From positions 20,522,001 to 20,586,000 of the forward strand of contig CP158635.1 in the NCBI GenBank assembly GCA_050273025.1: DNA of 64,000 nt. Reading direction: 5' to 3'. How positions within the stretch are numbered: position 1 is the first letter of the stretch; each line of letters starts with the position of its first letter. The notes beneath the pieces were generated by a model that saw only the letters and a list, made by a program, of their open reading frames with translations, made no database searches and was not told the origin of the DNA. The DNA is from Cenococcum geophilum. Lineage: Eukaryota. A program made the translations under genes and the position numbers. Below, one piece after another: positions 9,732 through 57,651 of the stretch.

Positions 9732-9737
9732 GGTCGG

Positions 9738-9916
9738 TGTAAGGCATATTGCCTAGACGTACGGTAGGGAGTAGGTAAGCCGAGCATGAGTTATAAGGAG
9801 GGTCGATGGAAGAGGACGATATAGTAAAGAGTATAGCAATAGCCTCGTACGGAGATAAACCGATGAGGAGGATAGGAGGGCTATAAGCCCGAGTAAGGGT
9901 CAAAATAACCCTTATA
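9738..9916 (-). mobile_element. Isolated LTR with adjacent polypurine tract (3' LTR remnant on minus strand)
   Basis: TGTAAGG...CCTTATA ends. Immediately followed on + by TTGCCCCCCCCCTTT, the reverse complement of the PPT form seen at 19118-19134. Confidence 0.65.
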
Positions 9917-29587: not shown

Positions 29588-32500
29588 TGTTACGGACGCT
29601 TTAAGTATAATGTTACGACTACTTAGAGAAGAGTTGGAAGAAGCTAGTTAGTTAATAAGAGCACGGTCTAGGATGGATTTGGTAGAGCTATATAATAAGG
29701 AATGGTAATTAAGGTTACATAATATGCTACGTATTAAACGAGAGGAATGAGAGGAACTTACGTACCTTATATATAATACGTATATTACGTATAAGAAGGA
29801 TTTTATAGGAGTACGGTTGTGTATTTAAGGACCCTTAGTCCCTACCTAGATAGTTCCTTCCTTGTAGTAATTCTTAGAATATAATTAGAGTTAATTTATT
29901 AGGCAACCACTCCACTAGTTATTATTATGTTGTTAACTTTAATTTGTATTACCTATATACCTAGCCCATTAATAAGCCTACCGTAGTACTTGCTATAAGG
30001 TTCCGTTATATAATTACTACCTAGTTATAGTATTAAATATAGAAAGTTAAATAATATGCCACTAAAAGTAGCTACTATAACGCCATTGACGGCGGCAACT
30101 ACTTTAGGGTTAGGAGGTGACACTAATATAGCGGACACTAACTTATAACAACCTATAACGGTAGAACAATTATAAAAAATAGTTAACTAGTTAATAGAGA
30201 ATAATGCAGCACTTAAAAATAGGATTAATGGGATAGGTATAGTAAAGGTTAAGTTACTATCGATTGAAAGATTTTTAGGAGAGAGATTGAAGCTTAAAGG
30301 ATTCCTTATATAAATGCACTTTAAGGTCGCGTAAGAGGGAGTAAAGCTGGCGACACCTATAGATTAAATAGCGTACGCAGGGCTATTCTTAATAGGAAGA
30401 GTACTTAAATAGTTTAAGCCTTACCTTATAGAAATATAAGTAAATGGAATAATAACTATAAACCAAGAGGTACGGTTTATATTTTTAAGCTAGAACGGAT
30501 TTATAGAATAACTTACGTAAATATTTGGAGACCTAGAGGCAGTAGCTATAGCGGAAAGAAAACTCTAAGATATTACGCAATGAACCTTAGCAATTAAGTA
30601 TATAACGTAGTTTTAAATATTAGCAATATAAGTTAAGTGGAATAATAGGGCGCTTATGGCACAGTATAAGTAAGGACTTAAGGCTAAAGTTTAAAATATA
30701 ATTATCCTAATAGAAGATGCGGACACCCTAAGGGAACTAATAGATTAAGCGATAAAGATTAATAATAGGATCTACTAAAGGGAATAGACTAAGAGAGGTT
30801 AGGATAGAGTTCTATAGTTATATAAGACGCAGAGTACGTAACGACTAAAGCTAAGTTAGAAACTATGGTATGGCGCAGAGCTAATGGACCTAAGTAGTAC
30901 TAAAGAAGCCTATAAGAGATGGAGTAAGAAACTATAAAAACCTAGAGGTTAAGAATTTAGTAATTATAGGACTAAGAAGCAGAGGCTAAACTAGGGATCT
31001 TAACAGTAGAAGACGTTTAGGCGGACTTTATAGCAAAGTTAATGGTTTAAAGACGGAGCTTATATAAATTACGGAAAACAAGGTTACTTCGCGAGGGATT
31101 ATAAAGATGGTTAGAATTACTATATAATAAAGGGAACTAGACTAATAGTAGAAGACATATATGTATAGGGGAACGATAGTGTACTATAAGGAATAAAAGA
31201 GTATTCAATTAGAAGTTTTGCGTTTTGTTATAATAACGCATACTAAATTTATAAAGATGCTAAGTATAGCGTAAGCTATTAGCTATAAGAGCTAAAATCT
31301 ATAAAGTGTAGAGGAACTAATAAACCAGTTCGCAGATTGGATATTAAGGATAATAAATTTAATATAGGCGAAACATTTTATAATAATAAGGCGATAGAGG
31401 CGGCTTATTAGGAGCACGTAGACCTTAGAGATGTTATACTAGAGGTAAAGGATAATCCCACTATAGAATAGGGAACATTAGTAGGGATTAAGACCCTACT
31501 AGACACGATGTTTATCGCTTCGCGAGACACAAGAGAAGTAGAATAGCGAACTACTTCGGCACTTAATAAAGGCAAAAGGCTAAAGGCTTAAGATTCTTAA
31601 GACGAGATAAGAGACGACTAAGATTCTTAAAGTAAGATAAGGCACACCTAAGGACCTATAATGGACGAAAACCGATAAAGTAGGGCAGTAGCTTAGTTTA
31701 AAGATATATAAATAAGCTTGGGATAAGAATTCCTAACGGCATAAGATTCTTAAGACGAGATAAGTAAGATTTAAGACTCTTAAGATGAGATAAAAACACT
31801 ACGGACGCCTAGTTAGACTAAGGCGGGAGCTAAGCTTAAGTTAGAAGCAAGCTTAGGATTAAAGAATCTAAGAGACTAGCAATTTAGAGTACGAATTAGG
31901 ACACCCATAAGTAAGAGGTAAGGGGCTTTTTTATAGATTAGAGAATCTATAATATAAACAGTAGTTAGACTAGGAGATAAATATATGGACCTAGAGGACC
32001 TACTAGGAGAACGCAGTGTTTGGCCTAAAGATTAAAAAGTTAATACTAAGATTAAGAAGTAAGGTGACTTTAAGGATCTACTTATAAGACGCGAAAGAAA
32101 AGAAACTATGGAGGAATTTAGAGTAAGAATTACCTTATAGCAAGAACAGAAACTAGATAAGAGATCTAATATATTGGGACGTATAAGGAACAGAGCACTA
32201 GTATAAAGAATCACTAATAGACCTAGAATAGGCACACTAAGAGCTAAGTGGCTTACTAAACTGGAGTAAGAAGAGGATTTAGGGATTTCTACTAGGTTTG
32301 AGGAACGACATACTAAAGGCTGTTACGATATAGTAATAAAGAGATATTTCCTTATAAATAAGCCGTATATACTTAAGCAGTTATACCAAAAGTAGTATAG
32401 ACAACGACACAATAATAAGTAGGAAGATTTCTATATATGGTTAGACGAAAAAGTTATCTAAGACTACCTAATTATAGAAAAGGCTATGACTTATATTAAA

Positions 32501-35500
32501 GGAGCCTTAATTATAATATTAAAGGATTTAGAGGAGTAATTAGAGGACTAGAGAAGTAAAAGGCGAATCTTAGTACCTGCGAACGAAGTTGCAACGCTTA
32601 GATTAATACGAGATAGGTTTAAACTTAAAGATAAAGACGAGCTAAGAGTTGACCTAAGATATTAAGCATATTATACACTATTGTAGATAGTATATATGGA
32701 TGATGCGTGTAATATATATAGAGCACTAAAGGACAAAAATTGGAAGTATCTAATAAGGATGTATTGGAGGACGGATAAGGTAAAATATTAAAACGCTAAG
32801 TATATATATAGTTGGCACCTAGTAGAAGTTTAAGAATAAGGAGACTTAATACTTTAACTAGGAAGATTCCTTATAGAAGAATACCTAGATAAACGATAAT
32901 GGTAGGAATGTCCAGAGAATACCTATCTATGGTATATTAAAGATAAAAAGCGAACTAAGTATTAGCCTAAGATGGACTAAGTATAAATAGGATCTAGTAG
33001 CTAATAGTTGGGAAAAGTAGAGGCCTATAGGACTAGAGGGAGCTAGTGGTAGAGCCTTAGACCCTTAAAGGAATTTAAGGACGGTATCTAAATTTACGAG
33101 TTAAATGGCAAGATTAATAGTTTAAGGCATTAATAGATAGTGGAGCAATAAGGAACTATATCTCGCTAGCAGCAGTTAAAAGAATGGGATTACTATATAG
33201 ACAGAAAGAACGACCTTACCTATTAGTAACAATTTTAGGAGATCTAATAGCCTATAGAGGAGGTATTATTAATCTTAAAATAGGACCAATTTAGTTAACT
33301 ATTAAAGGAAGATAAATCGAGATATCTTTTAATATATTACTATTAGGAAATAATAAGGCAATACTAGGAATGCCTTAGTTATAGGAATATAATCTAAAAA
33401 TCAACTAGATTACAGGTTAAGTCAATATTAGGGATACTCAACGCCATAAGGTGCGATAATAAGCCAAGTTAGTATAATACTAAGTAGGAGCAACCTACAA
33501 AGAAATGGAAAAAGGGCTAAGCTATATACTAAAGAGATACCATAAGTATGGCAAGAAGTTATGGTTACTTAAGAGTAAAAAGCTGTTAGAGTATATAGCA
33601 TGGGACTATAAGATAGAATTAGAACTAGGAATAAGTCTAAGGTTCTTTTTAATCTATAAGCTTACCAAAGAGAAAGGTAGAGCATTAAAAGAGTTTATTT
33701 AAGAAAACTTACGGAAGGAATACATTAAACCATCGCAGTTATTAGCGGGTTATTCAGTACTATTTATACTAAAGAAGAATAGTAAACTAAGGCTGTGTAT
33801 TAACTATAGATAGTTAAACAGTATTATAAGAAAGGATAGGTATCCTTTACCCTTAATTAGCGAGATCTAAGATAGGATAGGTAATGCGCAAATCTTTATA
33901 AAAATAGATCTAAGATGGGCGTACTATTAGATTAGAATTAAGAAAGGCGACGAATAAAAGGCAGCCTTTAGGTTAAAGGAAGGACTGTATAAACCATTAG
34001 TTATATAATTTAGGCTTATAAACGCACTAGCAACGTTTTAGAAGCGTATTAATAATATATTAGGAGAATACTTGGATGAATTTATTATAGTATACTTTAA
34101 TAATATTATTATCTACTTAATAGCTAAGAAAGAATACGGAGAATACGTTAAATAGGTTTTAAAGAGACTATAAGAAGAATAGATACTAGTAGCAATTAAG
34201 AAATGCGAGTTCTTTACTAGGAAGACCGATTTTATAAGATTTATTATTAAACTAGGCCAACTTAGTATAGATCTAAAGAAGATCGAGGCTATAGTAAATT
34301 AGTAAGAACTAGAGAATGTTACGCAGTTAAGATTATTCCTAGGGTTTTATAATTACTATAGAAGGTTTATAGCGTAGTGGTTAAAAGATATTAAACTACT
34401 TACGCGATTAATAAAGAAAGAAGAACTATAGGTATGGGGAGAGGAATAGTAGGGACTCTTTAAGAAAATTAAAGAGTTGTTTACTTAAGAGCTAGTTCTT
34501 AAGATCTATTAACTAGGACTAAAAACGGTTATAGAGATAAATGTATTAGACTTTATACTAGGGGCATACTTTATATAAAAGTATTTAGATGGATGGCACC
34601 TAGTAGCATACTATAGTTAGAAAATAACACCACTAGAGTTAAACTACGATATCTATAATAAAGAGTTATTAGGTATAATTACAGCACTAAAGAAATAAAG
34701 GGCATTCTTATAAGGTATAGAGAAACTATTTATAGTTAAAATAGATTATAAGAACCTAATAGGATTTTTAATAATAAAGGAACTTAACTAAAGACAGGTT
34801 AGATGGGTAGAGATACTTATAGAATACTATTTTAAGATTTAGTATACCAAGGGTATAGACAATACGCGGGCCAATACGTTAAGTTAAAAGGCTGAATTAT
34901 AAAACGACAAGAAGCTATTAGGGGCTTTACTATAAAGAGACATAGACGGGTTAATTAGATATAATTATCCGAAAATCGCAGTAACTTAAGAAGATAAGCT
35001 AAAAAGAGTTTATAAGTTACTAAAAAGCTTTTAGGTATAAAGAATTTTAGAAGTATAGCTAGAAGATCTATAGTCGGATATATACGAAAACTAAGAAGTA
35101 AAGTATATCCCAAGAAGTATAGCGGAGTAGTTTATAGAAGACTTCTATAAGGGACTAACTTAAGGATATAATAGAGCCACGGGCTTAGTATTAAGACTCT
35201 AAGAGGAGTACATTATTAATGGAATCTAGAGGATAGCTAGGAAGGTCGCTAAGGAGTATTTAGATTGCTAAAGAAATAAACTAACGAGGTATAAGCTATA
35301 TAGAGGGCTATAACCTATTAAAATACCAGAGAGACTATAGGAGGTTATATTATAGGACTTTATTATTAAGCTACTAAAGTTAAGAGACCCTATTACTGGA
35401 CAGGATTATAACGCGATTTTAGTAATAGTAGACAAGCTTACGAAGTAGGGATACTTTATAGCCTATATAGAAGAAATCTTAGCAGAGGATATCGCTAGAA

Positions 35501-37535
35501 TCTATATTAAAGAAGTATTTGTAAGATATAGAGCACTAAGTAAAATTATATTGGATAGAGATCTAAGATTCGTAGTAGTATTCTAGAAGGTATTTTTAGC
35601 GGAGTAAGGAGTTCAAGCAGTAACTTTCACTGTATATTATCCGCAGATAGGCGGTTAAACGGAAAGATTAAATTAGATACTAGAGCAGTATCTAAGATAT
35701 TATGTCAATCACGTATAGAATAATTGGGTATCGTTGTTACTAGTTATATAGTTTACGTATAACGCAACACCTTAAGAAGGAATAGGTATGTTACTATTTA
35801 AGGCAAATTACGGATATAAGCCGAGAACATTATTATCGCTATATTAAGTAAAGAAAATGAGTAGCACAGCTAAAGAAAGAATAAAGACATTAATAAATCT
35901 TTATATAGACCTTATAGAATTAGCAAAGGAAGTATAAGAGAAAATAAAAAGGTACTATAATGCTAAGAGATCTAAGGGACTAGATCTTAAGGAGGGAGAT
36001 AAAGTGTGGCTATTATATAAAAATTTTAAGAGTTAACGACTAAGTAAGAAGTTAAACTACGTTAGACTAGGACCTTTTAAAATTACGCAGAAAATTTCAC
36101 CGGTCACGTTTAAGTTAAACCTACTAGCTAAAATAAAAATCTACCCTATATAATATATTGTAATACTAGAGCTAGTATACGGGAATATTAAGCTACTAGT
36201 CTATAAGGCAGACATATATAGAGGACAAGAGGAAGATAAATAGTAAGTTTTAAGGATCGTTAGCTATAAGGATATTAACGATAAAACATAGTATAAGGTA
36301 AAGTGGATAGGCTATAATAAGACTACTTAGGAGCTACTAGAGAATTTAAAGAATGTTATAAGAAAGGTATAGGAGTATCGGAAGAAAGTAGGTTAGGCAA
36401 CATTAATAAAGAAGAATCGCTAAAAAATAAGTTACCTAAGGGGGACCTAGGAAGAGCGACTACCGAACTACTTAGAGTTATTCCCTTTATAGGAAGAGAG
36501 TTGGTTCTCTTATTACTAAGTTCCTAAAGACCTTACTTTATAAGTTTTTACTCCTTAGAACGGACCTTCTTACGAACTTTCTTAAGACGAAGTAGCTGAG
36601 TAGACGCCGTAATGCAAGTATTTAGGGCCTTCTGCTTAGCGTTATGGGAACGCTTAAGCTTGGCAAGAGCCTGCGCTAGATTACCGTTAAGCTTCGCAGC
36701 CGTAGATTAAACACGAGACCCTATAATAAATTACTTAGGGAACTTAAAGACTACTAGGAGTTATAGGACGCGTATACTTAGCGTTAGAAGTAGAGCGAAC
36801 ATCGCAGGACGATTAAATATTTGCTTTGGTGCACTCCGAATAAGAGGAGGGTTGCTAAGATAAAGGACTCGCCAACGCAATATAAATTAACCCCTTTCTC
36901 GTATAACGAGAACACGGAGATAGTATGATTTTACTAAGCAATAATATAGCAGTAATAGTGCGGGCACGACGTTGCGCGTGTAAAGAAGAAGATGCTTTAG
37001 GTATAATAAGTAATGACATTAACTAAATTAATTAGGCGGACATTATACCTCTAGTAAACGACTTGGAGATGCTAGAAATCTTTAAGGACGAAGATAGAGA
37101 GAAGGGAGATAGTGTTACGGACGCTTTAAGTACAATATTATAACTACTTAGAGAAGAGTTAGAAGAAGCTAGTTGGTTAATAAAAGCACGGTCTAAGATA
37201 GATCCGGTAGAGCTATGTAATGAGGAATAGTAACTAAGGTTATATAACATACTATATATTAAATAAGAGGAATAAGAGGAACTTACATACCTTATATATA
37301 ATACGTATATTATATATAAGAAGGATTTTATAGGAGTACGGTTGTGTATTTAAGGACCCTTAGTCCCTATCTAGATAGTTCCTTCCTTATAGTGATTTTT
37401 AGAATACAATTAGAGTTAATCTATTAGGTAACCACTCCACTAGTTATTATTACGTTGTTGACTTTAATTTGCATTACCTATATACCTAGCCCATTAACGA
37501 GCCTACCGTAGTACTTGCTATAAGGTTCCGTTATA
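29588..37535 (+). mobile_element. Full-length Ty3/Gypsy chromovirus-type LTR retrotransposon related to 1110-8033, RIP-inactivated
   Basis: LTRs 29588-30010 and 37113-37535; TSD ATACG. gag ATG ~30056, CCHC ~31060-31102, protease ~33135, RT ~34093, RNase H, integrase, chromodomain ~36240-36380. Confidence 0.96.
36480..37019 (-). pseudogene. Antisense spliced accessory gene in Gypsy 3' region (Zn2Cys6-like + coiled coil), RIP-mutated
   Basis: ATG at 37019. PCSR(C)TRKGLI(C)IALASP...S(C)SECTKANIxSSCDV, then an intron (~36721-36776), then WSRVxSTAAKL...RLKKVRKKVRSKExKLIKxGL. 3' end approximate. Confidence 0.75.
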
Positions 37536-39183
37536 ATACGGTTAAAATTATATCCTTTTCCTACCAAATAGTTATAATAGAAGGTACTAGCTCAGCCCTT
37601 AAGTATAACGGAATAGGCGTTATAGTATTAATTAGACTCTATTTCTACTTTCTAGTAATAGTTATAGAAAATACGTAGTTTTAAATTAAGGATATTATAT
37701 AGTTTTCTACTAAACTTCTTCCCCTAATCCGAATAGAGCTTCGTAAGCTCTATAAGTAATTTTAAACTACCTTTAATTTAAGATTAAGATGGAGGAGGTA
37801 GGAGTTGCATTATAGGCTATAGTAGGGACGTAGGTCTAATCGGTAGAGTCTAAAGGTTATTAAATTGCGGAGTAATAGGATCCTATACCTGCTTTTATTA
37901 GGGTATAGTATCTAACATTAAAGCTATAGGTTAAATTGGATATAGAGGAGTTAAGGGCAAAGGTAGATTTGTCTTTAGAGGTGTATTACTTAAATTCTAT
38001 TATAAGTTAAGCTTTCTTATAGTGCGTAGTTGGTGCTTAATCTCTTATAGAGTCTATTCGTGCTCTTCTTTTACGTTAATAACCTACTCCTAAATATTAT
38101 CTCTAATAGTACCCCCGTCTATAGGTATAAATACTTTATACTCCTATAAGAAGTTACGGAAGTCTTATATAATATCCTTCTTTATAGGAGTTTATATTTC
38201 CTTTATTTATCTAATAAAGTCCTCCCTTATATAGTACTATAGTATAATATTATTATATTCGCTGTCTTTATAGTATGCTATATAGTATAATAAGAATCTG
38301 TTTAGGTCCTATTGCTTAGCGTTTATAAAGTTAATTATATTAGTATTCTATATTTCTAGGTTAATGTCCTTCTTATACTTCTTTAGATAGGTTAATGCCA
38401 TAATAGGTATAGAATCGACGGGGTGTTGTACGTTAAAGGTAGGTAGGATTTTTGGTTTTATAGGATCTCGTAGGTTTACTATTAAGAAGTAGGTAATTTA
38501 AGATATTATTTAACGCGTTTTAGACGTCGTTTAACGCGTTTTAGATGTTAACTTAGGACTATAGGTTTAGTAACACTTCTGACCTAAAGTACTCGACCAA
38601 ATCTTTATAAACGTGGTTGTTCTATATAATAAACGCAACTTAGTATCTTCTAGTACTTAGTAACACTTCTATTACTAGTTTTCCGTAAGTTTAAGGTAGC
38701 GCAGTATTGCTAGAATCTATTCCATATAAGCGCATATAGCACCCCTATACGAGACTATCTCTTCTATTCAAAAACCTAGCTACTCTATAGTTAACTATAT
38801 ATTTAACCACTAATTAGTATTAGTTATATAGGGTGACTTACCAATAACAACTACTCGAGTAGGTTATAATAATGTTGGTTAATAAAGCTTATTAATTGGA
38901 ATGAGAAAGGGCGAAGAGCCTAAGACTCCTCGCCACGCTAGTGCCGCGGCGTTACGTGACGACCGCTTGCCTCATTCCCGACAATATTAAAATAGAATAT
39001 TAATTTTTAGCTAAGGATTTATATTATAGGACCCTAGGTTTAGAATATAGAAAGGGATACTATATTAGCGCTATCCGTTAAAAGCAATATATAATTTTAA
39101 GATAAAGGTAACTGGCCGACTAGCTTGGCCGTTATAGCCTTTTACCTAGATAGGCTTCTCTAATTAGGTGGCTTTTATATTTA

Positions 39184-42930: not shown

Positions 42931-43945
42931 ATTGTAACGTGTCCCGCACTACGTCGCCATACGGCCAAAAAGATAAAGAGTGATTGCGAACCTATTGCGA
43001 CTCTTGCGGGACCTAATATATATACTCTTACATATATATAGACATTTACCTTTAGCTTCTATATAATTACGCCATTTAGAAGCCTCTTTTCTATATTTTA
43101 GTAGTAGTTAACACCTTCTTTTTACTAATAGCTTCCTCTACTATATTATTATAATCCTTACTAAAGAACTCTACCTATTTATTAGCTACTACTTTAGTTA
43201 AAATATTTACTGCTTAAAGCGCCGTCTAAATAACTATAGTAATTTTAGCGTTTTTAGTATTAGTGGATATATTAATAGTTATAGCGGCCTTATATTTAAC
43301 ATTAAGATTAACCCTTTAAGCCTTTCGTTTATGCTTTAACTATACTTCTATTATTTTCTTTACTTCGCATTATTTATCTATATCGTTTACTTTCTTTAGG
43401 TATTATAGGATCCTTCGGATTTAATAACGCAATAATAGTAGTTAATTAATTAAGCCAGAAAGATTAAAGGCTATAATGTTTATAGCTTAATATATATTTT
43501 AAGCAATAAATACTTAGTATTTAAAGGCTCTAAATGGAATAGCTAGGATATTACTAAATATTTATATTTAGGATAAAGGCTTAAAAAATCTTTGGGCTAT
43601 TCTATAATATAAAGAGGTGTCGGTATAGGTAGTATAGGTTTAATAGTAAGGTCTACTTCTTTAGGCGCTTTAGAAGTGTTCTTTATAGTATTTTTAGGTG
43701 CTTTAGCTTTCCTCCTATGCGTTATGGCGCTAACTAAAATAAGAAATAATATCGGCTTTAAATGGCTTCGAGATATAGGCGACAGCGATACATTAGCATG
43801 CAGGATGGGTGTTCTCATGCGCGAGTATAGAAAAAAGGTTCAAACAGGCGAGGATTCGGTGGTTGATCATGGTTTCTGACATTTGATCGTCTTTTTCCGA
43901 AGCGACTGTAAGTAAATTTTGGGCGTTGGCGGTTGGCCCACCATA

Positions 43946-44454
43946 CAGCGATGTTCACGACCAGCTTCACCCCCCCCCCTTTAGCGAGCGCTGCGAGATT
44001 TCAAATTCGCTACGCGCATCCAATCTCGCTTGATTGCCGCCAGCTGTACATAGTAATTGTAGCGAAGCCATATGCTTGGCTGCAAGAACGTCGCGATCCC
44101 GCAGTGTCGTGATCTTCACCAGATATCGTGAGGTTTCCACCCGTATGATATTGCTAAATTTCATTGACCTCTCTGCAGAGACAGCGTTGTATTCGCGTTC
44201 TGGCGGCCACAAGGGAGGCGTAGTTACGGTGGGAGAAGGGGGAGAAGAGGAAGCGTACGTCTTTAATTTAATTCCCCTAGCCAACCAAGGCGTTTCTCTA
44301 GGGCAACCAAAAAGGTCCTTGCGTGTGGCTACAGCCGTTCGCTACAGGTACTACGTACGGCTAGTAGCAATTAAGCGAGGTTGGATACGCGTAGCGAATT
44401 TAAAATCTCGCAGCGCTTGCTAAAGGGGGGGGGTGAAGCTGGTCGTGAACATCA
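43946..44454. mobile_element. MITE with ~125-bp TIRs; the last 3 bp of its right TIR (CTG) are displaced to 56214-56216 by the Crypton array
   Basis: Left TA|CAGCGATGTTCACGACCAGCTTCACCCC...; right ...GGGTGAAGCTGGTCGTGAACATCA + CTG|TA. TA on both outer flanks. Confidence 0.85.
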
Positions 44455-44825
44455 ATAGTATGTCCACGGTTTGATTTGTATGGCTAAATTAGCCGCTAAG
44501 TCACAATTTGGTAGGCAGGAGGCCCGTGCGCTCAGCGCCATGTGGATATTACCCCATATTCACAGTCAATCTTTAATCGCCAGCAACGCCGTAGCAACGT
44601 CGCGCTCTTAACACCCGTTAAGTGGTATACGTAGAGCTGTCCAAGGGCTCTCTGCTCGCACTAGGATGGCAAGAATTGGCCGTAGGTTAATAGAGATATT
44701 TGCGTTTTAAATTAGGCGCTACTATTATATAAGTACCCTACTAAACTTATACTGCACTAAAATAAGCCCCTAAGGGGCTATAGATAAAGGCTTTAAGAGG
44801 ACTCCTTAAAAGTTAAATATATATA

Positions 44826-47050
44826 CTATTTTAAAGCTTTTTTACCTACTTAAAGCCGTTTATAAAGCTAATCTAGCGAGCACTATATCCGCTTCTGCTG
44901 TTAATTAACCTACTATATAGCCGCTTCCTTGCTAACCCTTTAGGCCTACGCAACCCGCCTAATTTCCTTAATAACCTTAAGCTATAGGGAGTACTATTAG
45001 AGCTCGTTCTACCAGCTAGCCTACTATTTACTACCCTATTTAGAATCTAGCGCTGCTATAAAAGGATTACCTCTAAGCCCTTTAGTCTACTCGCGCTAAA
45101 GGGCCTATATAGACTTTATTATACGGCATATACAATATATAGGCGGCTACTTAGGCGGCTGCTTGGGCTTAGGCCCTTACTATAGCTATAGCTATAGCTA
45201 TAGCTATAGCGGCGCTAGTAAAGGGGAAGCTATAGTGCTTACCTAGGCTAATATATTCTAGCTTAATTCCGTAATAGATAAAGGCGCTAGTAGACGTACT
45301 ATTGGTAGACGTACCGTTAGTAGGTATACTGTTAGACGTAAATATACGGATACTAAAGGGACCTTAAGCTAAAAGGTAAGGCTGCTAAATATAAGTAATT
45401 AAAGCTATAAAGACTGCGCCTACTAGGACTTGGCTATATAGTTAAATAACACCTATAGCTTGCGTACTTGGGCGTCTATAGTCTTTAGGCGGTTTATAAT
45501 AGCTAGTATAGCCTAGTAAAGTATTAATAGCTAGCTAGGGCCTTCTTCCTCCTACTATAGGTAGGCTTTAACCTTCCGCGTAAAGGGTAGATAGGCCTTA
45601 TACTAAAAAACTAGGTGGTTTTATATAGGGCTACTTAGGAATATCTTATAGAGGACTACTAAGTTCTATAGGATAACCTCCTAGAGATAAAATAGGAGGT
45701 TTATAGTGCCTATAGCCGTAAGGTTGTTAACCTAGCCAACCTAAAGGCTAAACTAACCCTTTTAGATGTTTAGCTTTAGCTAGATTATTAACAGTAGTAT
45801 ATTAAGGGGGGCAACGCTTGCCCTATAAATCTTAAAGCAGCCTATCTACGGCAAATAGCCGGCTATTGTCCGTATAAACTCCCGCGGTAGCGAGTTTAAG
45901 TAGTAGCTAACTATTTACTCCTAGTTTTACCTACTAGCGCGTTTAATCTGGTCCTTGCTAACCCCTTTTAGCTTCACTATTTTAGCGCTAGCGCTTCGCC
46001 TAATATAGGTCTTCTTTTATAAAAAGACGCTAATAGCCTAGAATGCCTTAGTAACCTACTCCCGCTATAAGTTATACGAGAAGGCCGTCTTACGGTCCCT
46101 AGCGCTGCTCTTAATTAGGCGGATATTATACTACGCTAACCACTTATTAAAGTCTAGGAACGGCTTATTACTAAGGTCCTAGTAGTATAGGAGGTAGAAA
46201 GCTAGCCCGCTAAGTATATAGATAAGCGGCTTCTTATTATATAGAGCTCTAATAGTCTTAAGGCGGCTATATTAGTTCTACTTACTAGCGTATATAGTAA
46301 ATATTAGGGGCATATAGCGCGTAGGACCTTCCCCCTTAAACTTAAAGGTAAATAGGTCTAAGATCTCGGCGGAGCGCCTATTACTACCGCGGGTAAATAT
46401 ATAGTAGCCTAGTAGGATATCTACAAGTATATAAAGGTAGTATTCTAGTAAGGAGTCTCTACAGGCCTATAGCTCGCGGCAAACACTCTTAAACTCGTCC
46501 TCTATATATCCATTAAGTAGTATATCCCTACCCTTATCTATAAACTACTCCTTTTCCCACTACGCGTCCCTCCGTTATAGAACCTTTAGGTAATCCCTAA
46601 TATTATCCTCCTACGGGGACTAGTAGCTATTTATCCTTATACCCTTCTACATCTAGTAGAAGTCTATTAGGGTAGTAATATAGCCATAAACTAAGCGCTA
46701 GGAGAGCCGCGTCTTATTCTAGGGCATATTATTACTAGCCTTACGGCTTTTTACTTTTAGTGGCTGGCCTATAACCTCCTTAATAAAAAAAAGAAGTAGC
46801 TTCTCTTCTATAACGGTATTACTATTATAGTACTACTTCCGCTTATAAAAGGCCTAGAAAAACGTGTATTAGTTATAAGTATACTACTCTATAAAGCACC
46901 TACCTACTTACCTTAAACTCTTTCTACTTCGGCTTATAATTTAAAGACGTATTTTTAGATCTCTCGGAATATATAAGGGTAAAGATACTCTACGCGTTAG
47001 CGCGTAGTTCGGCATTATTCGTAACGTTAATCTTTACATAACTAATTAAT
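44826..47050 (-). pseudogene. Crypton tyrosine recombinase with C-terminal GCR1_C-like domain, copy 1
   Basis: De-RIP motifs RPKNTS.NY.PKQKEF, DTVTEEKLLLFL, DKGRDTLLDGY, RRSAEISDL, KKTHIGRS, RRAGRWN, GCYLNSLPR, LWREWTEGL.GNPSVAALDSKWG. Intron 46854-46911. Start codon not resolved. Confidence 0.88.
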
Positions 47051-47765
47051 GGTATTTTTAAGATATATAGGACGCTGCTAGAGAAGCTACGCCCTAAGGG
47101 GGGGTTCCTATTTTCCTATATACGCAAATATAGACTAGGGAGAAAAGGTAGAGAAAGTATACCTACTAAATAAGTAACTTTACCGTATAGGGTAAATAAA
47201 CGGGCGTATGGCTGGGCTAATAGGCCAATAGTACGCGCGTATTAGCGACTTGATTAGTAGGGGTAAAGACATTTAAAGATGTCCACGGCTTGGCTATAGG
47301 CTTGGCCGTAGATATCCGCGAATGTTAATGGGGGTCGTATATATTATATACGGCTCAGCGACTAAGCGGGCGCTTAGCTAAGCCGTAAACACTAATAGTA
47401 TATCTACGGTTCGATTTATATAGCTAAATCAGCCGCTAAGTTATAATTTGGTAAGTAGGAGGCCTATACGCTTAGCGCTATATAGATATTACCCTATATC
47501 CACAGTCGATCTTTAATCGCCAGCAACGCCGCAGTAACGTCACGCTTTTAACACCTATTAAGCGGTATACGTAGAGCTGTTTAAGGGCTCTCTACTCGCA
47601 TTAGGATGGCAAGAATTAGCTATAGGTTAATAGAGATATTTACGTTTTAGATTAGGCGCCGCTATTATATAAGTACCCTACTAAACTTATACCGCACTAA
47701 AATAAGCCCCTAAGGGGCTATAGATAAAGGCTTTAAGAGGACTCCTTAGAAGTTAGATATATATA

Positions 47766-49990
47766 CTATTTTAAAGCTTTTTTACCCGCTTAAAGCCGTT
47801 TATAAAGCTAATCTAGTAAGCACTATATCCGCTTCTACTATTAATTAACCTACTATATAGCCGCTTTCTTACTAACCCTTTAGGCCTACGCGACCTACCT
47901 AATCTCCTTAATAACCTTAAGCTGTAGGGAGTACTATTAGAGCTTATTCTGCTAGCTAGCCTACTATCTACTACCCTATTTAGAATCTAGCGCTACTATA
48001 GAAGGATTACCTTTAAGCCCTTTAGTCCACTCGCGCTAAAGGGCCCGTATGGACTTTACTATATAATATATACAATATACAGACAGCTGCTTAGGCGGCT
48101 ACTTAGGCTTAGGCCCTTATTACGGCTATAGCTATAGCTATAGCTGCGGCGGCGCCGGTAAAGGGGAAGCTATAGCGCTTACCCGGGCCGATATATCCTA
48201 ACTTAATTCCGTGATAGATAGAGGCGCTAGTAGACGTACTATTAGTAAATATACCGTTGGTAGGTATGCTGTTAGACGTAAATATATAGATGCTAAAGGG
48301 ACCTTAAGCTAAAAGGTAAGGCTGCTAGATGTAAGTAATTAAAGCTATAAAGACTATGCCTACTAGAACTCGGCTATACAGTTAAATAACGCCTATAGCT
48401 CGCGTGCTCGGGCGTCTATAGTCTTTAGGCGGTCTATAATAGCCAGTATAGCCTAGTAGAGTATTAATAGCTAGCTAGGGCCTTCTTTCTCCTATTATAG
48501 GTAGGCTTCGACCTTCCACGTAAAGGGTAGATAGGCCTTATACTAGAAGACTAGGTGGTTCTATATAGGGCTACTTAGGAACATCTTACGGAGGACTACT
48601 AAGTCCTATAGGATAACCTCCTAAAGATAAAACAGGAGGTTTATAGCGCCTATAACTATAAGGTTGTTAACCTAGCTAACTTAAGGGCTAAACTAACCCT
48701 TTTAGATGTCTAGCTCTGGCTAGATCGTTAATAGTAGTATATTAGGGGGGGCAACGCTTGCCCTATAAATCTTAAAGCAGCCTATCTACGGTAAATAGCC
48801 GGCTATTATCTGTATAAACTCCTACGGCAGCAAGTTTAAGTAGTAGCCGACTATCTGCTCCTAGTTTTACCTACTAGCGTATCTAATCTAGTCCTTACTA
48901 ACCCCTTTTAGCTCTACTATCTTAGCGCTAGCGCTTCGCCTAATATAGGTCTTCTTCTATAAAAAGACGCTAATGGCTTAAAATGCTTTAGTAACCTACT
49001 TCCGCTATAAGTTATATAAGAAGGCCGTCTTATAGTCCCTAGCGCTGCTCTTAATTAGGCGGATATTATACTACGCTAACTACTTACTAAAGTCTAGGAA
49101 CGGCTTATCGCTAAGGTCCTAGTAGTATAAGAGGTAAAAAGCTAGCCTACTAAGTATATAGATAAGCGGCTTCTTATTATATAGAGCTCCGATAGTTTTA
49201 AGGTAGCTATATTAGTTCTACTTACTAGCGTATATAGTAAATATTAGGGGTATATAGCGCGTAGAACCTTTCCCCTTAAACTTAAAGGTAAATAGGTCTA
49301 AGATCTCGGCGGAGCGCCTATCGCCGCTATAGGTAAGTATATAGTGGCTTAGTAGGATATCTATAAGCGTATAGAGGTAGTATTTTGGTAAGGAGTTTCC
49401 GCGGGTCTATAGCTTGCGGTAAACGCTTTTAAACTCATCCTCTGTATATCCGTTAAGTAGCGTATCCCTACCCTTATTTATAAACTACTCCTTTTCCTAC
49501 TACGCGTCCCTCTATTATAGAACCTTTAGGTAATCCCTAACGTTATTCTCTTATAGGGACTAGTAGCTATTTATTTTTATACCCTTCTATATCTAGTAGA
49601 GGTCCGTTAAGGTAGTAATATAGCCGTAAACTAAGCGCTAGGAGAGCCGCGTCTTATCCTAAGGCACGTTATTACTAGCCTTACAGCTTTTTACTTTTAG
49701 TGGCTAGCCTATAACCTCCTTAACAAGGAAAAGAAGTAGCTTCTCTTCTATAATGGTATTGCTGTTATAGTACTGCTTCCGCTTATAAAAGGCCTAGGAA
49801 GATACGCGTTAGTTATAAGTATACTACTTTATAAAGTACCTACCTACTTACCTTAAACTCTTTCTGCTTTGGCTTATAATTTAGAGATATATTTTTAGGT
49901 CTTTTAGAACACATAAGGGTAAGGATACTCTACGCGTTAGCGCGTAGTTTAGTATTATTTACAACGTTAATCTTTACGTAACTAATTAAT
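47766..49990 (-). pseudogene. Crypton tyrosine recombinase, copy 2
   Basis: Colinear with copy 1 at +2940 bp. Confidence 0.88.
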
Positions 49991-50705
49991 GGCATTTTTA
50001 AGATATATAGGACGCTGCTAGAGAAGCTGCGCCCTAAGGGGGGGTTCCTATTTTCCTATATACGCAGATATAGACTAGGGAAGAGAGGTAGAGAAAGTAT
50101 ACCTACTAAATAAGTAACCTTACTGTATAGGGTAAATAAACGGGCGTATGGCTGGGCTAATAGGCCAATAGTACGCGCGTATTAGCGACTTAATTAGTAG
50201 GGGTAAAGACATTTAAAGATGTCCACGGCTTAGCTATAGGCTTGGCCGTAGATATCCGCGAATGTTAACGGGGGTCGTATATATTACGTGCGGCTCAGTA
50301 ACTAAGCGGGCGCTTAGCTAAGCTGTAAACACTAATAGTATGTCTATGGTTCGATTTGTATGGCTAAATCAGCCGCTAAGTCATAATTTAGTAGGCAGGA
50401 GGCCCGTGCGCTTAGCGCTATATAGATATTACCCTATATCTACAGTCAATCTTTAATCGCCAGCAACGCCGCAGCAATGTCGCGCTCTTAATACCCGTTA
50501 AATAGTATGCGTAGAGCTGTCCAAGGGCTCTTTACTCGCACTAGGATGGTAAGAATTAGCCATAGGTTAATAGAGATATTTGCGTTTTAAATTAGGCGCC
50601 GCTATTGTATAAGTACCCTACTAAACTTATACCGCACTAAAATAAGCCCCTAAGGGGCTATAGATAAAGGCTTTAAGAGGACTCCTTAAAAGTTAAATAT
50701 ATATA

Positions 50706-52930
50706 CTATTTTAAAGCTTTTCTACCCGCTTAAAGCCGTTTATAAAGCTAATCTAGCAAGTACTATATCCGCTTCTACTGTTAATTAACCTACTATATAG
50801 CCGCTTCCTCGCTAACCCTTTAGGCCTACGCGACCCGCCTAATCTCCTTAATAACCTTAAGCTATAGGGAGTACTATTAGAGCTCGTTCTACCGGCCAGC
50901 CCGCTATTTACTATCCTATTTAGAATCTAGCGCTGCTATAGAAGGATTACCTCTAAGCCCTTTAGTTTACTCGCGCTAAAGGGCCTATATAGACTTTATT
51001 ATACGGCACATATAATATACGGGCGGCTACTTAGGCGGCTGCTTGGGCTTAGGCCCTTACTACGGCTATAGCTATAGCTATAGCTGCGGCGGCGCCAGTA
51101 AAGGGGAAGCTATAGTGCTTACCTAGGCTAATATATTTTAGCTTAATTCCGCAATAGATAAAGGCGCTAGTAGACGTACTATTGGTAGACGTGCCGTTAG
51201 TAGATATACCGTTAGATATAAATATACGGATGCCGAAGGGACCTTAAGCCGAAAGGTAAGGCTACTAGATATAAGTAATTAAAGCTATAAAGACTGCGCC
51301 TACTAGGACTTAGCTATATGGTTAAATAACGCCTATAGCTTACGTACTTGGGCGTTTATAGTCTTTAGGCGGTCCGTAATAGCTAGCACGGCTTAGTAGA
51401 GTATTAATAGTTAACTAGGGCCTTCTTCCTCCTACTATAGGTAGGCTTTAACCTTCCGCGTAAAGGGTAAATAGGCCTTATACTAGAAGACCAGGTGGTT
51501 TTATATAGGGCTACTTAGGAATATCTTATAGAGGACTACTAAGTCCTATAGGATAACCTCCTAGAGATAAAATAGGAGGTTTATAGCGCCTATAGCCGTA
51601 AGGTTGTTAACCTAGCCGATTTAAAGGCTAAACTAACCCTTTTAGACGTCTAGCTCTAGCTAGATCGTCAACAGTAGTATATTAGGGGGGGCGACGCTTG
51701 CCCTACAAATCTTAAAGCAGCCTATTTGCGGCGAATAGCCGGCCATCGTCCGTATAAACTCCCGTAGTAGCAAGTTTAAGTAATAGCTAACTATTTACTC
51801 CTAGTTCTACCTATTAGCGCGTTTAATCTGGTCCTTGCTAACCCCTTTTAGCTTTACTATTTTAGCGCTAGCGCTTTGCCTAATATAGGTCTTCTTTTAT
51901 AAAAAGACGCTAATAGCCTAGAATACCTTAGCAACCTACTCCCATTATAAGTTATACAAAAAGGCCGTCTTACGGTCCCCAGCGCTGCTCTTAATTAGGC
52001 GGATATTATATTACGCTAACTACTTACTAAAGTCTAGGAACGGCTTATTGCTAAGGTCCTAGTAGTATAGGAGGTAGAAAGCTAGCCCGCTAAGTATATA
52101 GATAAGCGGCTTCTTATTATATAGAGCTCTAATAGTCTTAAGGCGGCTATACTAGTTCTACTTACTAGCGCGTATAGTAAATATTAGGGGTATACAGCGC
52201 ATAGGACCTTCCCCCTTAAACTTAAAGGTAAATAGGTTTAATATTTCGGCGGAGCGCCTATTACTACCGCGGGTAAGTATATAGTAGCCTAGTAGGATAT
52301 CTATAAGTATATAAAGGTAGTATTCTAGTAAGGAGTCTCTGCAGGCCTATAGCTCGCGGTAGATACTCTTAAACTAGTCCTCTATATATCTATTAAGCAG
52401 TATATTCCTACCCTTATCTATAAACTACTCCTTTTCCTACTACGCGTCCCTCCGTTATAGAACCTTTAGGTAATCCCTAATATTATCCTCCTACAGAAAC
52501 TAGTGGCTATTTATTCTTATACCCTGTTATATTTAATAGAAGTCTATTAGAGTAGTAATATAGCCGTAAACTAAGCGCTAGGAGAGCCGCGTTTTGTCCT
52601 AGGGCATATTATTACTAGCCTTACGGCTTTTTACTTTTAGTAGCTAGCCTATAACCTCCTTAATAAGGAAAAGAAGTAGCTTCTCTTCCGTAACGGTATT
52701 ACCGTTATAGTACTACTTCCGCTTATAAAAGGTCTAGAAAAACGTGTATTAGTTATAAGTATACTACTCTATAAAGCACCTACCTACTTACCTTAAACTC
52801 TTTCTACTTCAGCTTATAATTTAAAGACGTATTTTTAGGTCTCTCGAAATATATAAGGGTAAAGATACTCTACGCGTTAGCGCATAGTTCGGCATTATTT
52901 GCGACATTAATCTTTACGCAACTAATTAAT
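50706..52930 (-). pseudogene. Crypton tyrosine recombinase, copy 3
   Basis: Colinear with copy 1 at +5880 bp. Confidence 0.88.
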
Positions 52931-53645
52931 GGCATTTTTAAGATATATAGGACGCTGCTAGAGAAGCTGCGCCCTAAGGGGGGGTTCCTATTTTCCTATA
53001 TACGCAGATATAGACTAGGGAGGAGAGGTAGAGAAAGTATATCTACTAGATAAGTAATTTTACCGTATAGGGTAAATAAACGGGCGTATGGCTAGGCCAA
53101 TAGGCTAATAGTACGCGCGCATTAGCGACTTGATTAGTAGGGGTAAAGATATTTAAAGATGTCTACGGCTTAGCTATAGGCTTGGCTATAGATATCCGCG
53201 AATATTAATAGGGGTTATATATATTACGTGCGGCTTAGCAACTAAGCGGGCGCTTAGCTAAGCCGTAAACACTAATAGTATATCTACGGTTTAATTTATA
53301 TAGCTAAATCAGCCGCTAAGTTATAATTTGGTAGGTAGGAGGCCCGTGCGCTTAGCGCTATATAGATGTTACCCTATATCCACAGTCGATCTTTAATCGC
53401 TAATAACGCCGCAGTAACGTCGCGCTTTTAATACCTATTAAGCGGTATGCATAGAGCTGTCTAAGGGCTCTCTACTCGCACTAGGATGGCAAGAATTAGC
53501 TATAGGTTAATAGAGATATTTACGTTTTAGATTAGGCGCCGCTATTATATAAGTACCCTACTAAACTTATACCGCACTAAAATAAGCCCCTAAGGGGCTA
53601 TAGATAAAGGCTTTAAGAGGACTCCTTAGAAGTTAGATATATATA

Positions 53646-55870
53646 CTATTTTAAAGCTTTTTTACCTATTTAAAGCCGTTTATAAAGCTAATCTAGCGAG
53701 CACTATATCTACTTCTACTATTAATTAACCTACTATATAGCCGCTTCCTTACTAACCCTTTAGGCCTACGCGACCTACCTAATCTCCTTAATAACTTTAA
53801 GCTGTAGGGAGTACTATTAGAGCTTATTCTGCTAGCTAGCCTACTATTTACTACCCTATTTAGAATCTAGCGCTACTATAAAAGGATTACCTTTAAGCCC
53901 TTTAGTCTACTTGCGCTAAAGGGCCTGTACGGACTTTACTATATAGCATATACGATATACGGGCGGCTGCTTAGGCGGCTGCTTAGGCTTAGGCCCTTAC
54001 TGCGGCTATAGCTGTAGCTATAGCTACAGCGGCGCCAGTAAAGGGGAAGCTATAGTGCTTACCTAGGCCAATATATCCTAACTTAATTCCGTAATAGATA
54101 AAGGCGCTAGTAGACATACCATTAGTAAATATACCGTTGGTAGGTGTGCTGTTAAACATAAATATATAGATACTAAAGGGACCTTAAGCTAAAAGGTAAG
54201 GCTGCTAGATGTAAGCAATTAAAGCTACAAAGACTGTGCCTACTAGAACTCGGCTATATAGTTAAATAATGCCTATAGCTCGCGTGCTTAGGCGTCTATA
54301 GTCTTTAAGCGGTCTATAATAGCTAGCACGGCCTAGTAGAGTATTAATAGCTAGCTAGGGCCTTTTTCCTCCTACTATAGGTAGGCTTCGACCTTCTGTA
54401 TAAAGGGTAGATAGGCCTTATACTAGAAGACTAGGTGGTTCTATATAGGGCTACTTAGGAATATCTTGTGGAGGACTACTAAGTCCTATAGAATAACCTC
54501 CCAAAGATAAAATAGGAGGTTTATAGCGCCTATAGCTATAAGGTTATTAACCTAGCTAACTTAAGGGCTAAACTAACCCTTCTAGACGTCTAGCTCTGGC
54601 TAGATCGTCGACAGTAGTATATTAGGGGGGGCAACGCTTGCCCTATAAATCTTAAAGCAGCCTATCTACGGTAAATAGCCGGCTATTGTCTGTATAAACT
54701 CCTACGGCAGCGAGTTTAAGTAGCAGCCGACTATCTGCTTCTAATTTTACCTACTAGCGTATTTAATCTGGTCCTTACTAACCCCTTTTAGCTCTACTAT
54801 CTTAGCGCTAGCGCTTCGCTTAATATAGGTCTTCTTCTATAAAAAGACGCTAATGGCTTAAAATACCTTAATAACCTACTTCCGCTGTAAGTTATACGAG
54901 AAGGCCGTCTTATAGTCCCTAGCGCTGCTCTTAATTAGGTGGATATTATACTACGCTAACTACTTACTAAAGTCTAGGAACGGCTTATTGCTAAGGTCCT
55001 AGTAGTATAAGAGGTAGAAAGCTAGCCCACTAAGTATATAGATAAGCGGCTTCTTATTATATAGAGCTCTAATAGTTTTAAGGTAGCTATACTAGTTCTA
55101 CTTACTAGCGTATATAGTAAATATTAGGGGTATATAGCGCGTAAAACCTTCCCCCTTAAATTTAAAAGTAAATAGGTCTAAGATCTCGGCGGAGCGCCTA
55201 TTGCCGCTATAGGTAAGTATATAGTGGCTTAGTAGGATATCTATAAGCGTACGGAGGTAGTATTTTAGTAAGGAGTTTCCGCGGGCTTATAGCTTGCGGT
55301 AGACGCTCTTAAACTCGTCCTCTATATATCCGTTAAGTAGCGTATTCCTACCCTTATTTATAAACTGCTCCTTTTCCCGCTACGCGTTCCTCTATTATAA
55401 AACCTTTAGGTAATCCCTAACATTATTCTCCCGCGGGGACTAGTAGCTGTTTATTTCTATACCCTTCTACATCTAGTAGAGGTCCGTTAGGGTAGTAATA
55501 TAGCCGTAAACTAAGCGCTAGGAGAGCCGCGTCTTATCCTAGGGCACGTTATTACTAGCCTTACGGCTTTTTACTTTTAGTGGCTAGCCTATAACCTTCT
55601 TAACAAGGAAAAGAAGTAGCTTCTCTTCTATAATGGTATCGCCGTTATAGTACTGCTTCCGCTTATAAAAGGCCTAGGAAGACACGCGTTAGTTATAAAT
55701 ATACTACTTTATAAAGCACCTACCTACTTACCTTAAACTCTTTCTGCTTTGGCTTATAATTTAGAGACATATTTTTAGGTCTCTTGGAACGCATAAGGGT
55801 AAAGATACTCTACGCGTTAGCGCGTAGTTCGGCATTATTTGCGACGTTAATCTTTACGCAACTAATTAAT
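53646..55870 (-). pseudogene. Crypton tyrosine recombinase, copy 4
   Basis: Colinear with copy 1 at +8820 bp. Confidence 0.88.
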
Positions 55871-56481
55871 AGCATTTTTAAGATATATAGGACGCTGCTA
55901 GAGAAGCTGCGCCCTAAGGGGGGGTTCCTATTTTCCTATATACGCAGACATAGACTAGGGAGGAGAGGTAGAGAAAGCATACCTACCGGATAAGTAACCT
56001 TACCGCATAGGGTAATAAACGGGCGCACGGCTGGGCCAATAGGCCAATAGTACGCGCGCATCAGCGACTCGATTAGTAGGGGTAAAGACATTCAAAGATG
56101 TCCACGGCTTGGCTGCAGGCTCGGCCGTGGACATCCGCGAATGTCGACGGGGGTCGTATGTATCACGTGCGGCTCAGCGACTGAGCGGGCGCTCAGCCGA
56201 GCCGTGAACACCACTGTAGTTGATCGAAGGCCGAACTTCTCGCTTTGCTCCCCAAGAACCTCCACTAGTGGAGATCCTACCAAAGCTAAACTCATCCTTG
56301 ATCAAGGAACCTACAGCCTCGTATCCATTATTTTGGACGCTCTTACATACGGCCTGGATTCTGGGAACTAGAACGCAAGACTAAAAGCCCAGCCAATTCG
56401 CGCAAGTCGCAAAGCCATACCCATATATCACCGTTCCTGAGCACCTTTTAGAAGACCGCAAGTGGATTTCGACTAGGGGAA

Positions 56482-57651
56482 ATGATGGAAGAAGACGATG
56501 ATGAGTTCTACGGTCATGATGGGACGGCCAATGCTCCTGGCAGCGGTGATCAAAGCAAGCAGGACGCCTCTGCCAACGGCCAGGCCAATAACAAGGACGA
56601 CAACTTGGACGAAGAGCTCGAGTCTGGAGAGGAAGAAGAAGAGGGCAGTGATTCAGTATGCGCCGACGGCTCTATCTTTAGCTCTCACATTTACTGACTG
56701 TTTTTTCAGGATATCGAGATCATCACTGATCGACCCCAAGCTCAAAAGCCTATATCGTGAGTTCTCCCAATCTCAATCACCCCAAATTTTCAGCATACCT
56801 CTTGGAGTTACCTTGTAAGAAGTACTAACTATCATAGCCAATCCACGGTTGACTCTATAAAAGACCCCCGCGCTACCGACCAAACCTCGAGTCGCTCGCA
56901 AACACACCAGCAACAATCCGCACCCAAAGCCACCCTCTCAGCTCCCACCGCCCCTTCCGCACCACAGCAGCCAGGCTCCAGTTATCCCGAAGTGCGCACC
57001 TCCACAATTGACGTCAATGCCGACCCAGTTTACCCACCCGTCGGCAAGCCCATCTCCCAAACCGACATCGACGCCGACCTCGCGGAGAACACGAAGCCAT
57101 GGCGACTTCCTGGCGCTGACCAATCCGACTACTTCAACTATGGCTTTGACGAATTCACCTGGGAGATGTACCGGCAGCGACAAGCGACCATGACCGGCAC
57201 GCTCGCGACCCAGAAAGCCGAAACGGCGCAATTCCAGCAAATGTTCGGCGGCGCGACGTCCGTCCCCTCGACCTCTCCCGCCCCGCCCGTCCCCGGCGCG
57301 CCCACGGGCCCCGCTGCCCAGCAGGCCAGCATGGCGAACCCCATGGCCGCGATGATGGGCATGCCCGGCATGCCCGGCAGCCAGGAGGAGATGGCCACCG
57401 CGATGCAGGCTGTCATGATGCAGCAGGGGATTACGGATCCCAGCCAGCTGGATTTTAATACCTTCATGGCGAGCTTTCAGCAGCAGATGGCGGGCGGTGG
57501 CATGCCCGGACAGCAGGCGCCGCAGCAGCAGCAACAGGCGCAGGCACAAGGCTATGGACAGGGCTACGGGAATTATGCGCAACAGCAAGGCGGAGGACAG
57601 CAGTATGGTGGAAGGGGACAAGGTGGACGCGGTGGAGGGAGAAGATGGTAG
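56482..57651 (+). CDS. FIP1: Pre-mRNA polyadenylation factor Fip1 (exons 56482-56655, 56710-56756, 56838-57651)
   Basis: Acidic N-terminus, DIEII motif, Fip1 motif KPWRLPGADQSDYFNYGFDEFTWEMY, Q/G- and RGG-rich tail. GT-AG introns with branch sites keep the frame. Confidence 0.93.

Follow-up and report, generated by a model that had tools for sequence, protein, structure and literature searches.

Four head-to-tail copies of a CryptonF-type element, all of them dead, were found inside the right terminal inverted repeat (TIR) of a miniature inverted-repeat transposable element (MITE) in a 64,000-nucleotide (nt) stretch of the Cenococcum geophilum genome (contig CP158635.1, forward-strand positions 20,522,001 to 20,586,000; this whole stretch is referred to as the window, and all positions are counted within it). 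The Crypton probably entered the TIR by site-specific recombination, with MITE ends serving as recurrent landing sites, and the array probably grew in register afterwards. This reading draws on the likeness between the MITE end and the joining site of the Crypton, on a second insertion at the same base of a MITE in a metagenome contig, and on the distribution of mutations shared between the four units.

The restored target and the Crypton joining site

Removal of 44455–56213 in silico joined ...GCTGGTCGTGAACATCA to CTGTA, and the right end restored in this way differed at one of 22 positions from the left end, TACAGCGATGTTCACGACCAGC, read as its reverse complement (21 of 22 equal), which bears out the near-exact match claimed in the initial annotation. 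The product is a gene-less foldback MITE of 516 bp (Table 1) with TIRs of ~123 nt at 88.6% identity (BLAST E 2.7e-40, an inverted repeat far beyond chance). Its left terminus is TA-CAGCGATGTTCACG... and its right terminus ...CGTGAACATCACTG-TA, the TA lying outside both MITE ends (43944–43945 and 56217–56218). The single difference between the two ends, A against G, is a natural polymorphism of the MITE family: among 15 intact ends in metagenome contigs, the restored form was carried by ten and the left-end form by five. The restored right end thus has the majority form of the family, and the target sequence predates the arrival of the Crypton. Compared with the family consensus of the corresponding type, the right TIR, beside the array, carried five transitions and the left TIR none, and the transitions in the array-adjacent TIR look like repeat-induced point mutation (RIP) leaking a short way out of the array.

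At the three internal and two outer junctions of the array, the unit end was ...CCGTGAACACCA and the unit start ATAGTATGTCCACGG, with RIP variants. Joined head to tail, the units display a core of inverted 10-nt arms around a 7-nt spacer (CA/ATAGT, the slash marking the unit boundary), in full ...CCGTGAACAC CA/ATAGT ATGTCCACGG..., and these junctions show what the junction of a circle would look like. The MITE motif TCGTGAACAT equalled each of the Crypton arms, CCGTGAACAC and CCGTGGACAT, at 8 of 10 positions, and the MITE outer end, TCGTGAACAT-CA-CTG-TA, corresponds to one arm (8/10) followed by the first two spacer bases. Between the 11 nt that precede the array and the 11 nt that close it, 10 of 11 positions were identical, for which the chance at a fixed place is ~8e-6 by our own arithmetic. 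This array-flanking repeat reads CGTGAACA(T/C)CA, and its left copy is ordinary MITE sequence, present in 15/15 intact ends. The insertion left a MITE arm followed by Crypton on the left, and a Crypton arm followed by CTG-TA on the right.

The motif CGTGRACAY occurred eight times in the window against 0.07 expected (0 of 100 shuffles reached eight); two matches lay at MITE ends and six at Crypton unit ends, with none elsewhere. Together with the 8/10 identity to each arm, this bears out the resemblance between the MITE terminal motif and the Crypton arms that had been noted from the sequence at the outset. In the unit consensus from which RIP mutations had been removed (the de-RIPed unit), the arm motif was found five times (four exact, one with one mismatch); all copies were clustered within ~120 nt of the junction, and the remainder of the 2.9 kb was free of it. 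A sixth copy was present ~100 nt inside the Crypton left end in L009, the metagenome locus with the second insertion, in which the element is less mutated.

On this basis, we propose that a CryptonF element of 2,940 bp recombined site-specifically into the right TIR of a Tc1/mariner-type MITE that is flanked by TA and present in high copy number. The outer TIR end mimics one arm and the first two spacer bases of the Crypton joining site, and strands would have been exchanged either at the CA that both share or immediately to its left. Since the half-site stands at both ends of an abundant MITE, these ends may act as recurrent landing sites for the Crypton family, as the two insertions at the same base suggest.

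The MITE family in metagenome contigs

Joint Genome Institute (JGI) metagenome contigs were probed with 22 nt of the TIR from which the terminal 6 nt had been left out. Seventeen loci matched, comprising 16 MITE ends on 16 contigs and one chance match in GC-rich DNA (L012). Fifteen of the 16 ends were intact, and all of these read TA-CAG(T/C)-GATG (10 with T, 5 with C) or, on the other strand, CGTGAACATC(A/G)CTG-TA. The half-site CGTGAACATCA gave 12 matches in 11 of the 17 loci, within intact MITE ends. Full copies in L004 had TA on both sides and no longer duplication, L005 had TA at the left end and a RIP-altered right end, and in L007 two MITE copies abutted on a shared TA. A Tc1/mariner-type MITE, as first proposed for this element from its TA flanks, is in keeping with the long TIRs, the CAGTG tips and the TA on either side; duplication of the TA itself is not proven by these features, as no empty site was seen.

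Contigs of four sequencing runs were aligned to 43000–57500 at an identity of at least 90%, giving 2,565–8,313 short-read contigs per run. Summed depth was 830–15,683 over the MITE against 3–47 over the single-copy flank (15,683 against 47 in run X1), values that do not amount to a copy number; from the excess over the flank, MITE and Crypton are both highly repeated. Among the best 15 of 66 contig joints, all driven by run X1, none ran across 44454/56214 (the empty Crypton site) or across the whole MITE, a result that is uninformative on presence or absence. The shares of sampled words (0.45–0.56 in the runs of organism B against 0.77–0.78 in X1–X4) were about the flank's share of the query, a hint, not counted as evidence, that the organism B strains do not have this particular RIP-marked unit.

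Further observations were made on the family and on the site. The poly-C/poly-G run within each TIR (43970–43981 and 44422–44431) varied in length from 7 to 11 among the family loci, with deletions of 1–3 in contigs. A MITE subfamily (L004 230–718 and L007 1529–1660) had the same TA-CAG tips and a different TIR interior or tip (CAGCCTATTGCACGACC...), and its copies abutted other MITEs at a TA that was shared or close by, an arrangement suggestive of clustering in this MITE family. Nested within a MITE copy in L005 (434–654) was a foldback element of ~220 bp with inverted ends of its own (GGACCACGCAAAATTGAATTTCCC...), representing a second small MITE family. L001 shared only the outer 146 nt with the MITE; it was considered as the autonomous parent and rejected, as the 1.5 kb available showed no transposase-like frame. 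In three runs, 12–13 contigs left the MITE at 44089 (MITE position 146) into unlike sequences (low agreement, 0.49–0.56); elements that share these ends but differ in their interiors, possibly an autonomous parent among them, seem to be present in the genome. At the right flank, a 733-nt contig of run X6 matched (56217–56882) only from 56217, the TA itself, after 67 unlike letters, and a contig of run X8 matched from 56229 after 174 letters; in the X6 and X8 strains, the Crypton and perhaps also the MITE may be absent from this site, and the start of the X6 match at the TA is one hint of a TA duplication.

A second insertion at the same base

Counting of MITE copies with a Crypton at the same base, which had been suggested in the initial annotation, gave one of the 16 ends obtained with the MITE-only probe (L009). 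Its junction reads ...GGTCGTGAACATCA/ATAGTATGTCCACGGTTCGATT... (that is, ...CGTGAACATCA/ATAGTATGTCCACGG), with the same base and the same orientation relative to the TIR as in the window. The TIR beside the Crypton is of the left type in L009 and of the right type in the window. At its far end, the L009 MITE stops 35 nt short of the full length and borders on a different repeat, and the flank differs from that of the window. Over 1.5 kb, the L009 Crypton differed from the de-RIPed unit of the window by 23 transversions and 8 indel events, against three transversion columns and one indel among the four window units themselves; at 65 sites with A or T in the de-RIPed unit, it had kept G or C. 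Given the differences in TIR type, flank and Crypton sequence, L009 is read as a second, independent integration. As it was found from the MITE side, it speaks for reuse of the site but not for the fraction of Cryptons that use MITE ends. A collection of viral contigs gave no match to the Crypton left end.

The window insertion could also have been a one-off, for which a short match of ~5 nt (CAYCA-like) sufficed; the likeness over 9–11 nt would then be coincidence, and L009 would descend from that event or be a rearranged copy of it. In the available parts of two reports (PMC3212892, PMC9977147), Crypton targets and terminal repeats measure only 4–6 bp, which agrees with this explanation. It is nevertheless unlikely in view of the 10/11 match at a fixed place, which chance would very rarely give, and of the absence of the 9-mer from the rest of the 64 kb. 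L009 also differs from the window in its flank, in the truncation of its far MITE end and in its Crypton lineage (8 indel events and 23 transversions), and under random placement it would be very unlikely for one of only 16 MITE ends sampled to repeat both the base and the orientation.

Several observations nonetheless count against recurrent site-specific integration. Two insertion sites are known in all, the second found by probing for MITE ends, and the L009 Crypton is known from its MITE-side end only. The outer 80 nt are alike in both TIR types, the differences between left and right type starting ~80 nt from the terminus, so that a flip of the MITE interior could convert a right-type site into a left-type one; in strictness, one ancestral insertion followed by such a flip, duplication and rearrangement could still account for both loci. 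To the right of the crossover, the target shows no counterpart of the second arm (~1 of 10 positions by eye), and it is therefore not a full bacterial attachment site (attB) in the phage sense. No independent read or contig spans the four-copy structure. The catalytic step is one that we infer from the sequence, for all recombinase genes at this locus are dead, and neither an intact copy nor a circle or excision product came to light.

Identity and growth of the Crypton array

The interval 44455–56213 consists of exactly four head-to-tail units. Their alignment had 506 variable columns, of which 503 were C/T or A/G and three were transversions, and one 1-bp indel. The excess of transitions between units is a RIP signature, and as the units carry different mutations, the four copies are not an assembly duplication. 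The array is RIP-saturated, with 196, 175 and 132 sites mutated in one, two and three copies, respectively. Of the visible mutations, 228/503 were at CpG, a proportion that is probably an artefact of saturation at CpA and from which no conclusion was drawn. The unit ends were free of long repeats, TIRs and long terminal repeats. A 33-kb contig of run X1 started 20 nt inside the Crypton right end and was identical to the window from there into the flank; as this run may come from the source sample, it is not counted as independent.

Translated on the minus strand with X in place of stops, unit 4 matched the Pfam domain NDC10_II, the tyrosine-recombinase fold of Crypton and Ndc10 (E 6.1e-42), and, weakly, GCR1_C (E 0.013; 16.2 bits against a cut-off of 23, in a RIP-damaged copy). 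A database search returned 25 proteins of 571–755 amino acids, with PF16787 in 25/25 and PF12550 in 23/25. The best homologue (P0007, 628 amino acids) had 62% identity at 100% coverage of the query region, and the de-RIPed consensus was colinear with its residues 1–628 at 75% identity, in one frame and with no introns. The window frame aligned to the homologues through the C-terminal end (the GCR1_C region). The homologues carry GDRRSAE, THIGR and GRWNQEQM..CYL, which correspond to the R, H-x-x-R and Y motifs of tyrosine recombinases. In all four window copies, the His of H-x-x-R is replaced by Tyr, and each copy has 66–71 in-frame stops. The de-RIPed consensus still had 51 stops in its 633-codon frame, and no open frame of at least 80 codons was found in it except one 94-codon stretch over the junction. 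The element is thus of CryptonF type and dead; its only gene, of ~633 codons and free of introns, encodes a tyrosine recombinase with GCR1_C. The earlier assignment of the array to Cryptons is thereby confirmed, both by the NDC10_II match and by the colinear homologue.

Mutations common to exactly two units were unevenly distributed: 67 were shared by units 1 and 3 and 74 by units 2 and 4, against 15 (units 1 and 2), 7 (1 and 4), 8 (2 and 3) and 4 (3 and 4). They were spread along the whole unit and included both C>T and G>A. Pairwise identity followed the same pattern, with 93.0% for units 1 and 3, 93.4% for units 2 and 4, and 88–90% for the other pairs. RIP mutates each copy independently, and the sharing therefore points to a dimer (A, B) that was mutated first and then block-duplicated to ABAB. 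A dimer would thus have formed, been hit by RIP in a sexual cycle, been duplicated to A B A B, and been struck by RIP again. The block duplication would most simply have occurred when sister chromatids recombined, the leftmost junction site of one with the rightmost of the other, or when an excised dimer circle re-integrated. Both routes are favoured by the growth from two to four in register, for which the junction sites are the only homology outside the array. Since the resident genes were probably already damaged, the recombinase would on either route have had to be supplied in trans.

Repair without any recombinase was also considered, in which a free Crypton circle or concatemer was joined at the 11-nt match by microhomology-mediated or single-strand-annealing repair, with a rolling-circle concatemer and gene conversion accounting for the array. 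An 11-nt microhomology would be enough for such a capture, and concatemers also yield exact multiples of a unit. The explanation is quite improbable, however, as the spacer that separates the inverted arms of the Crypton core site is exactly where the crossover falls, and L009 has its junction at this base too. The sharing pattern moreover needs a dimer stage already mutated by RIP, which integration of a single concatemer does not give.

That the MITE is a non-autonomous Crypton partner, moved by the Crypton enzyme through recombinase-binding motifs at its ends, is scarcely credible: an arm-like motif does stand at both MITE termini, and elsewhere in the window at Crypton ends only, but a BLAST search of the MITE against the window matched only the MITE itself, no Crypton sequence was found in it beyond the 9–11-nt motif, the two motif copies are inverted, not direct, an arrangement on which a tyrosine recombinase brings about inversion, not excision, and the TA-CAG(T/C)G of 15/15 intact ends with long TIRs is a signature of Tc1/mariner-type (DDE-type) cut-and-paste transposition. 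Cryptons are also described as having neither TIRs nor target duplications in the available part of a published account (PMC3212892). The initial annotation had left open whether the MITE end is an attB-like landing pad or the MITE a partner mobilized by the same recombinase; the landing pad gains support from L009, with its insertion at the same base and in the same orientation, and the partner finds none in the short inverted motif that the two elements have in common.

Feature coordinates and genomic setting

The positions of the MITE, the repeats at its junctions with the array and the four Crypton units are given in Table 1.

Table 1. Positions in the window of the split MITE, the recombination-site motifs and the Crypton units.
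Feature	Position	Strand	Remarks
Foldback MITE body	43944–44454		TA flank 43944–43945; left TIR 43944–44066; internal part; right TIR 44338–44454, to Crypton junction
Target half-site in MITE TIR, CGTGAACATCA	44444–44454	+	left copy of 11-nt direct repeat around array
Crypton unit 1, 2940 bp	44455–47394	-	dead gene ~44829–46727; 68 in-frame stops
Core-site right arm at unit left end, ATGTCCACGG	44460–44469	-	inverted relative to terminal arm, 7 nt away across unit junction
Crypton unit 2, 2940 bp	47395–50334	-	dead gene ~47769–49667; 71 stops
Crypton unit 3, 2940 bp	50335–53274	-	dead gene ~50709–52607; 68 stops
Crypton unit 4, 2939 bp	53275–56213	-	dead gene ~53649–55547; NDC10_II match ~54411–55457; 66 stops
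Subterminal palindrome with two further arm-motif copies, GATGTCCACGGC ... GCCGTGGACATC	56097–56135		1-mismatch copy follows at ~56141–56150
Crypton terminal arm + CA, CGTGAACACCA	56203–56213	+	right copy of direct repeat
MITE right-TIR tip CTG (3 bases) + TA flank	56214–56218		severed from rest of MITE by array

The array and the MITE lie at the border between a long AT-rich block with RIP signature (GC 0.25–0.39, extending to ~44 kb) and a gene-bearing stretch of normal composition (GC 0.46–0.54, from 56 kb). The latter contains, ~3 kb from the array, an ordinary housekeeping gene for a VPS15-like protein kinase (59410–63568, minus strand, split by an intron), with the C-terminal part of the kinase, a HEAT/VPS15 helical domain and a WD40 propeller. 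Within the AT-rich part, 2001–8000 and 30001–38000 showed a strong strand asymmetry unlike the rest (GC skew 0.18–0.35, AT skew up to 0.23). Positions 1–1048 of L009 resembled 36505–37533, 29587–30011, 7221–8023 and 1339–1528 of the window, and these window stretches are probably copies of one other RIP-mutated repeat family in the same orientation.

Relation to known systems and significance

In lambda-type integration, the phage attachment site (attP) recombines with attB: each has two inverted arms around a spacer of ~7 nt, exchange takes place in the spacer, insertion is orientation-specific and leaves hybrid sites, and one sequence is used again and again. The Crypton locus resembles this system in its arm and spacer core, in exchange within the spacer, in orientation, in the hybrid left and right sites and in the repeated use of a sequence. 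It differs in that the target has one recognizable arm and is a multi-copy transposon sequence, not a single conserved host gene.

To our knowledge, observed integrations of Cryptons are very few, their target rules amount mainly to matches of 4–6 bp, and CryptonF-1_cRei of Chlamydomonas reinhardtii is the only Crypton seen moving. Goodwin's model of Crypton integration is described in the available parts of PMC3212892 and PMC13465315, and inverted arms around a spacer, the layout matched by the Crypton core, are cited in the former as typical of tyrosine recombinase sites (PMC3212892). As far as that account of the CryptonF elements of fungi and oomycetes extends, they agree with the present element in having one protein with a tyrosine recombinase and GCR1_C, no TIRs of their own, a length of ~3 kb, and a short terminal direct repeat of which one copy belongs to the target (PMC3212892). 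The differences from the same account are a target-shared repeat of 11 nt (10/11) where 4–6 bp are reported, a target within the TIR of another transposon, and an exact four-unit array (PMC3212892). The active CryptonF-1_cRei ends in CACCG and targets CAYCG according to the accessible part of its description (PMC9977147). In both cases, a terminus thus meets a near-identical target, here CACCA into CATCA, with the CAYC core and the C/T tolerance alike; CryptonF-1_cRei differs in being active and in having gene-proximal targets, and that part of its description mentions neither transposon targeting nor arrays (PMC9977147).

MarCry-1_FO of Fusarium oxysporum likewise has a CryptonF unit physically combined with a Mariner-type element that bears TIRs and TA, but, in the portion of the account available, it moves as a mariner, with a DDE transposase of its own and 16-bp TIRs (PMC3212892). 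In Cenococcum geophilum, by comparison, the host is a gene-less MITE whose TIR is split 3 nt from its tip, and there is no sign of movement of the composite. A literature search, whose coverage did not extend to subscription papers and supplements, gave no report of a Crypton core site spelled out by tandem junctions, of a target copying a whole arm, of Cryptons targeting a MITE TIR or reusing its tip, or of Crypton arrays, four-unit ones with datable growth included. The mechanism, Crypton integration at a short near-identical target, is known; the target is unreported, and the preference for it is drawn from two insertions.

The locus shows a full Crypton core site, a target that copies one arm and two spacer bases, and the same base used twice. 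The Crypton junction and the MITE end are defined substrates for a recombination assay with an intact homologue, and the ABAB mutation pattern dates the growth of the array relative to RIP, which is rarely possible. If the preference held genome-wide, it would show clearly, for a eukaryote, that one transposon family can provide another with its attachment site, and would offer a simple route to the Mariner–Crypton composite reported from Fusarium. It is possible, though doubtful, that this Crypton family uses the termini of resident mariner-type MITEs as its main chromosomal attachment site. In that event, hundreds of MITE ends would be harmless docking sites for an unrelated transposon, and the dockings would be a first step toward composites of the MarCry type and would seed in-register arrays that grow by exchange at recombinase sites even after RIP has killed the resident genes.

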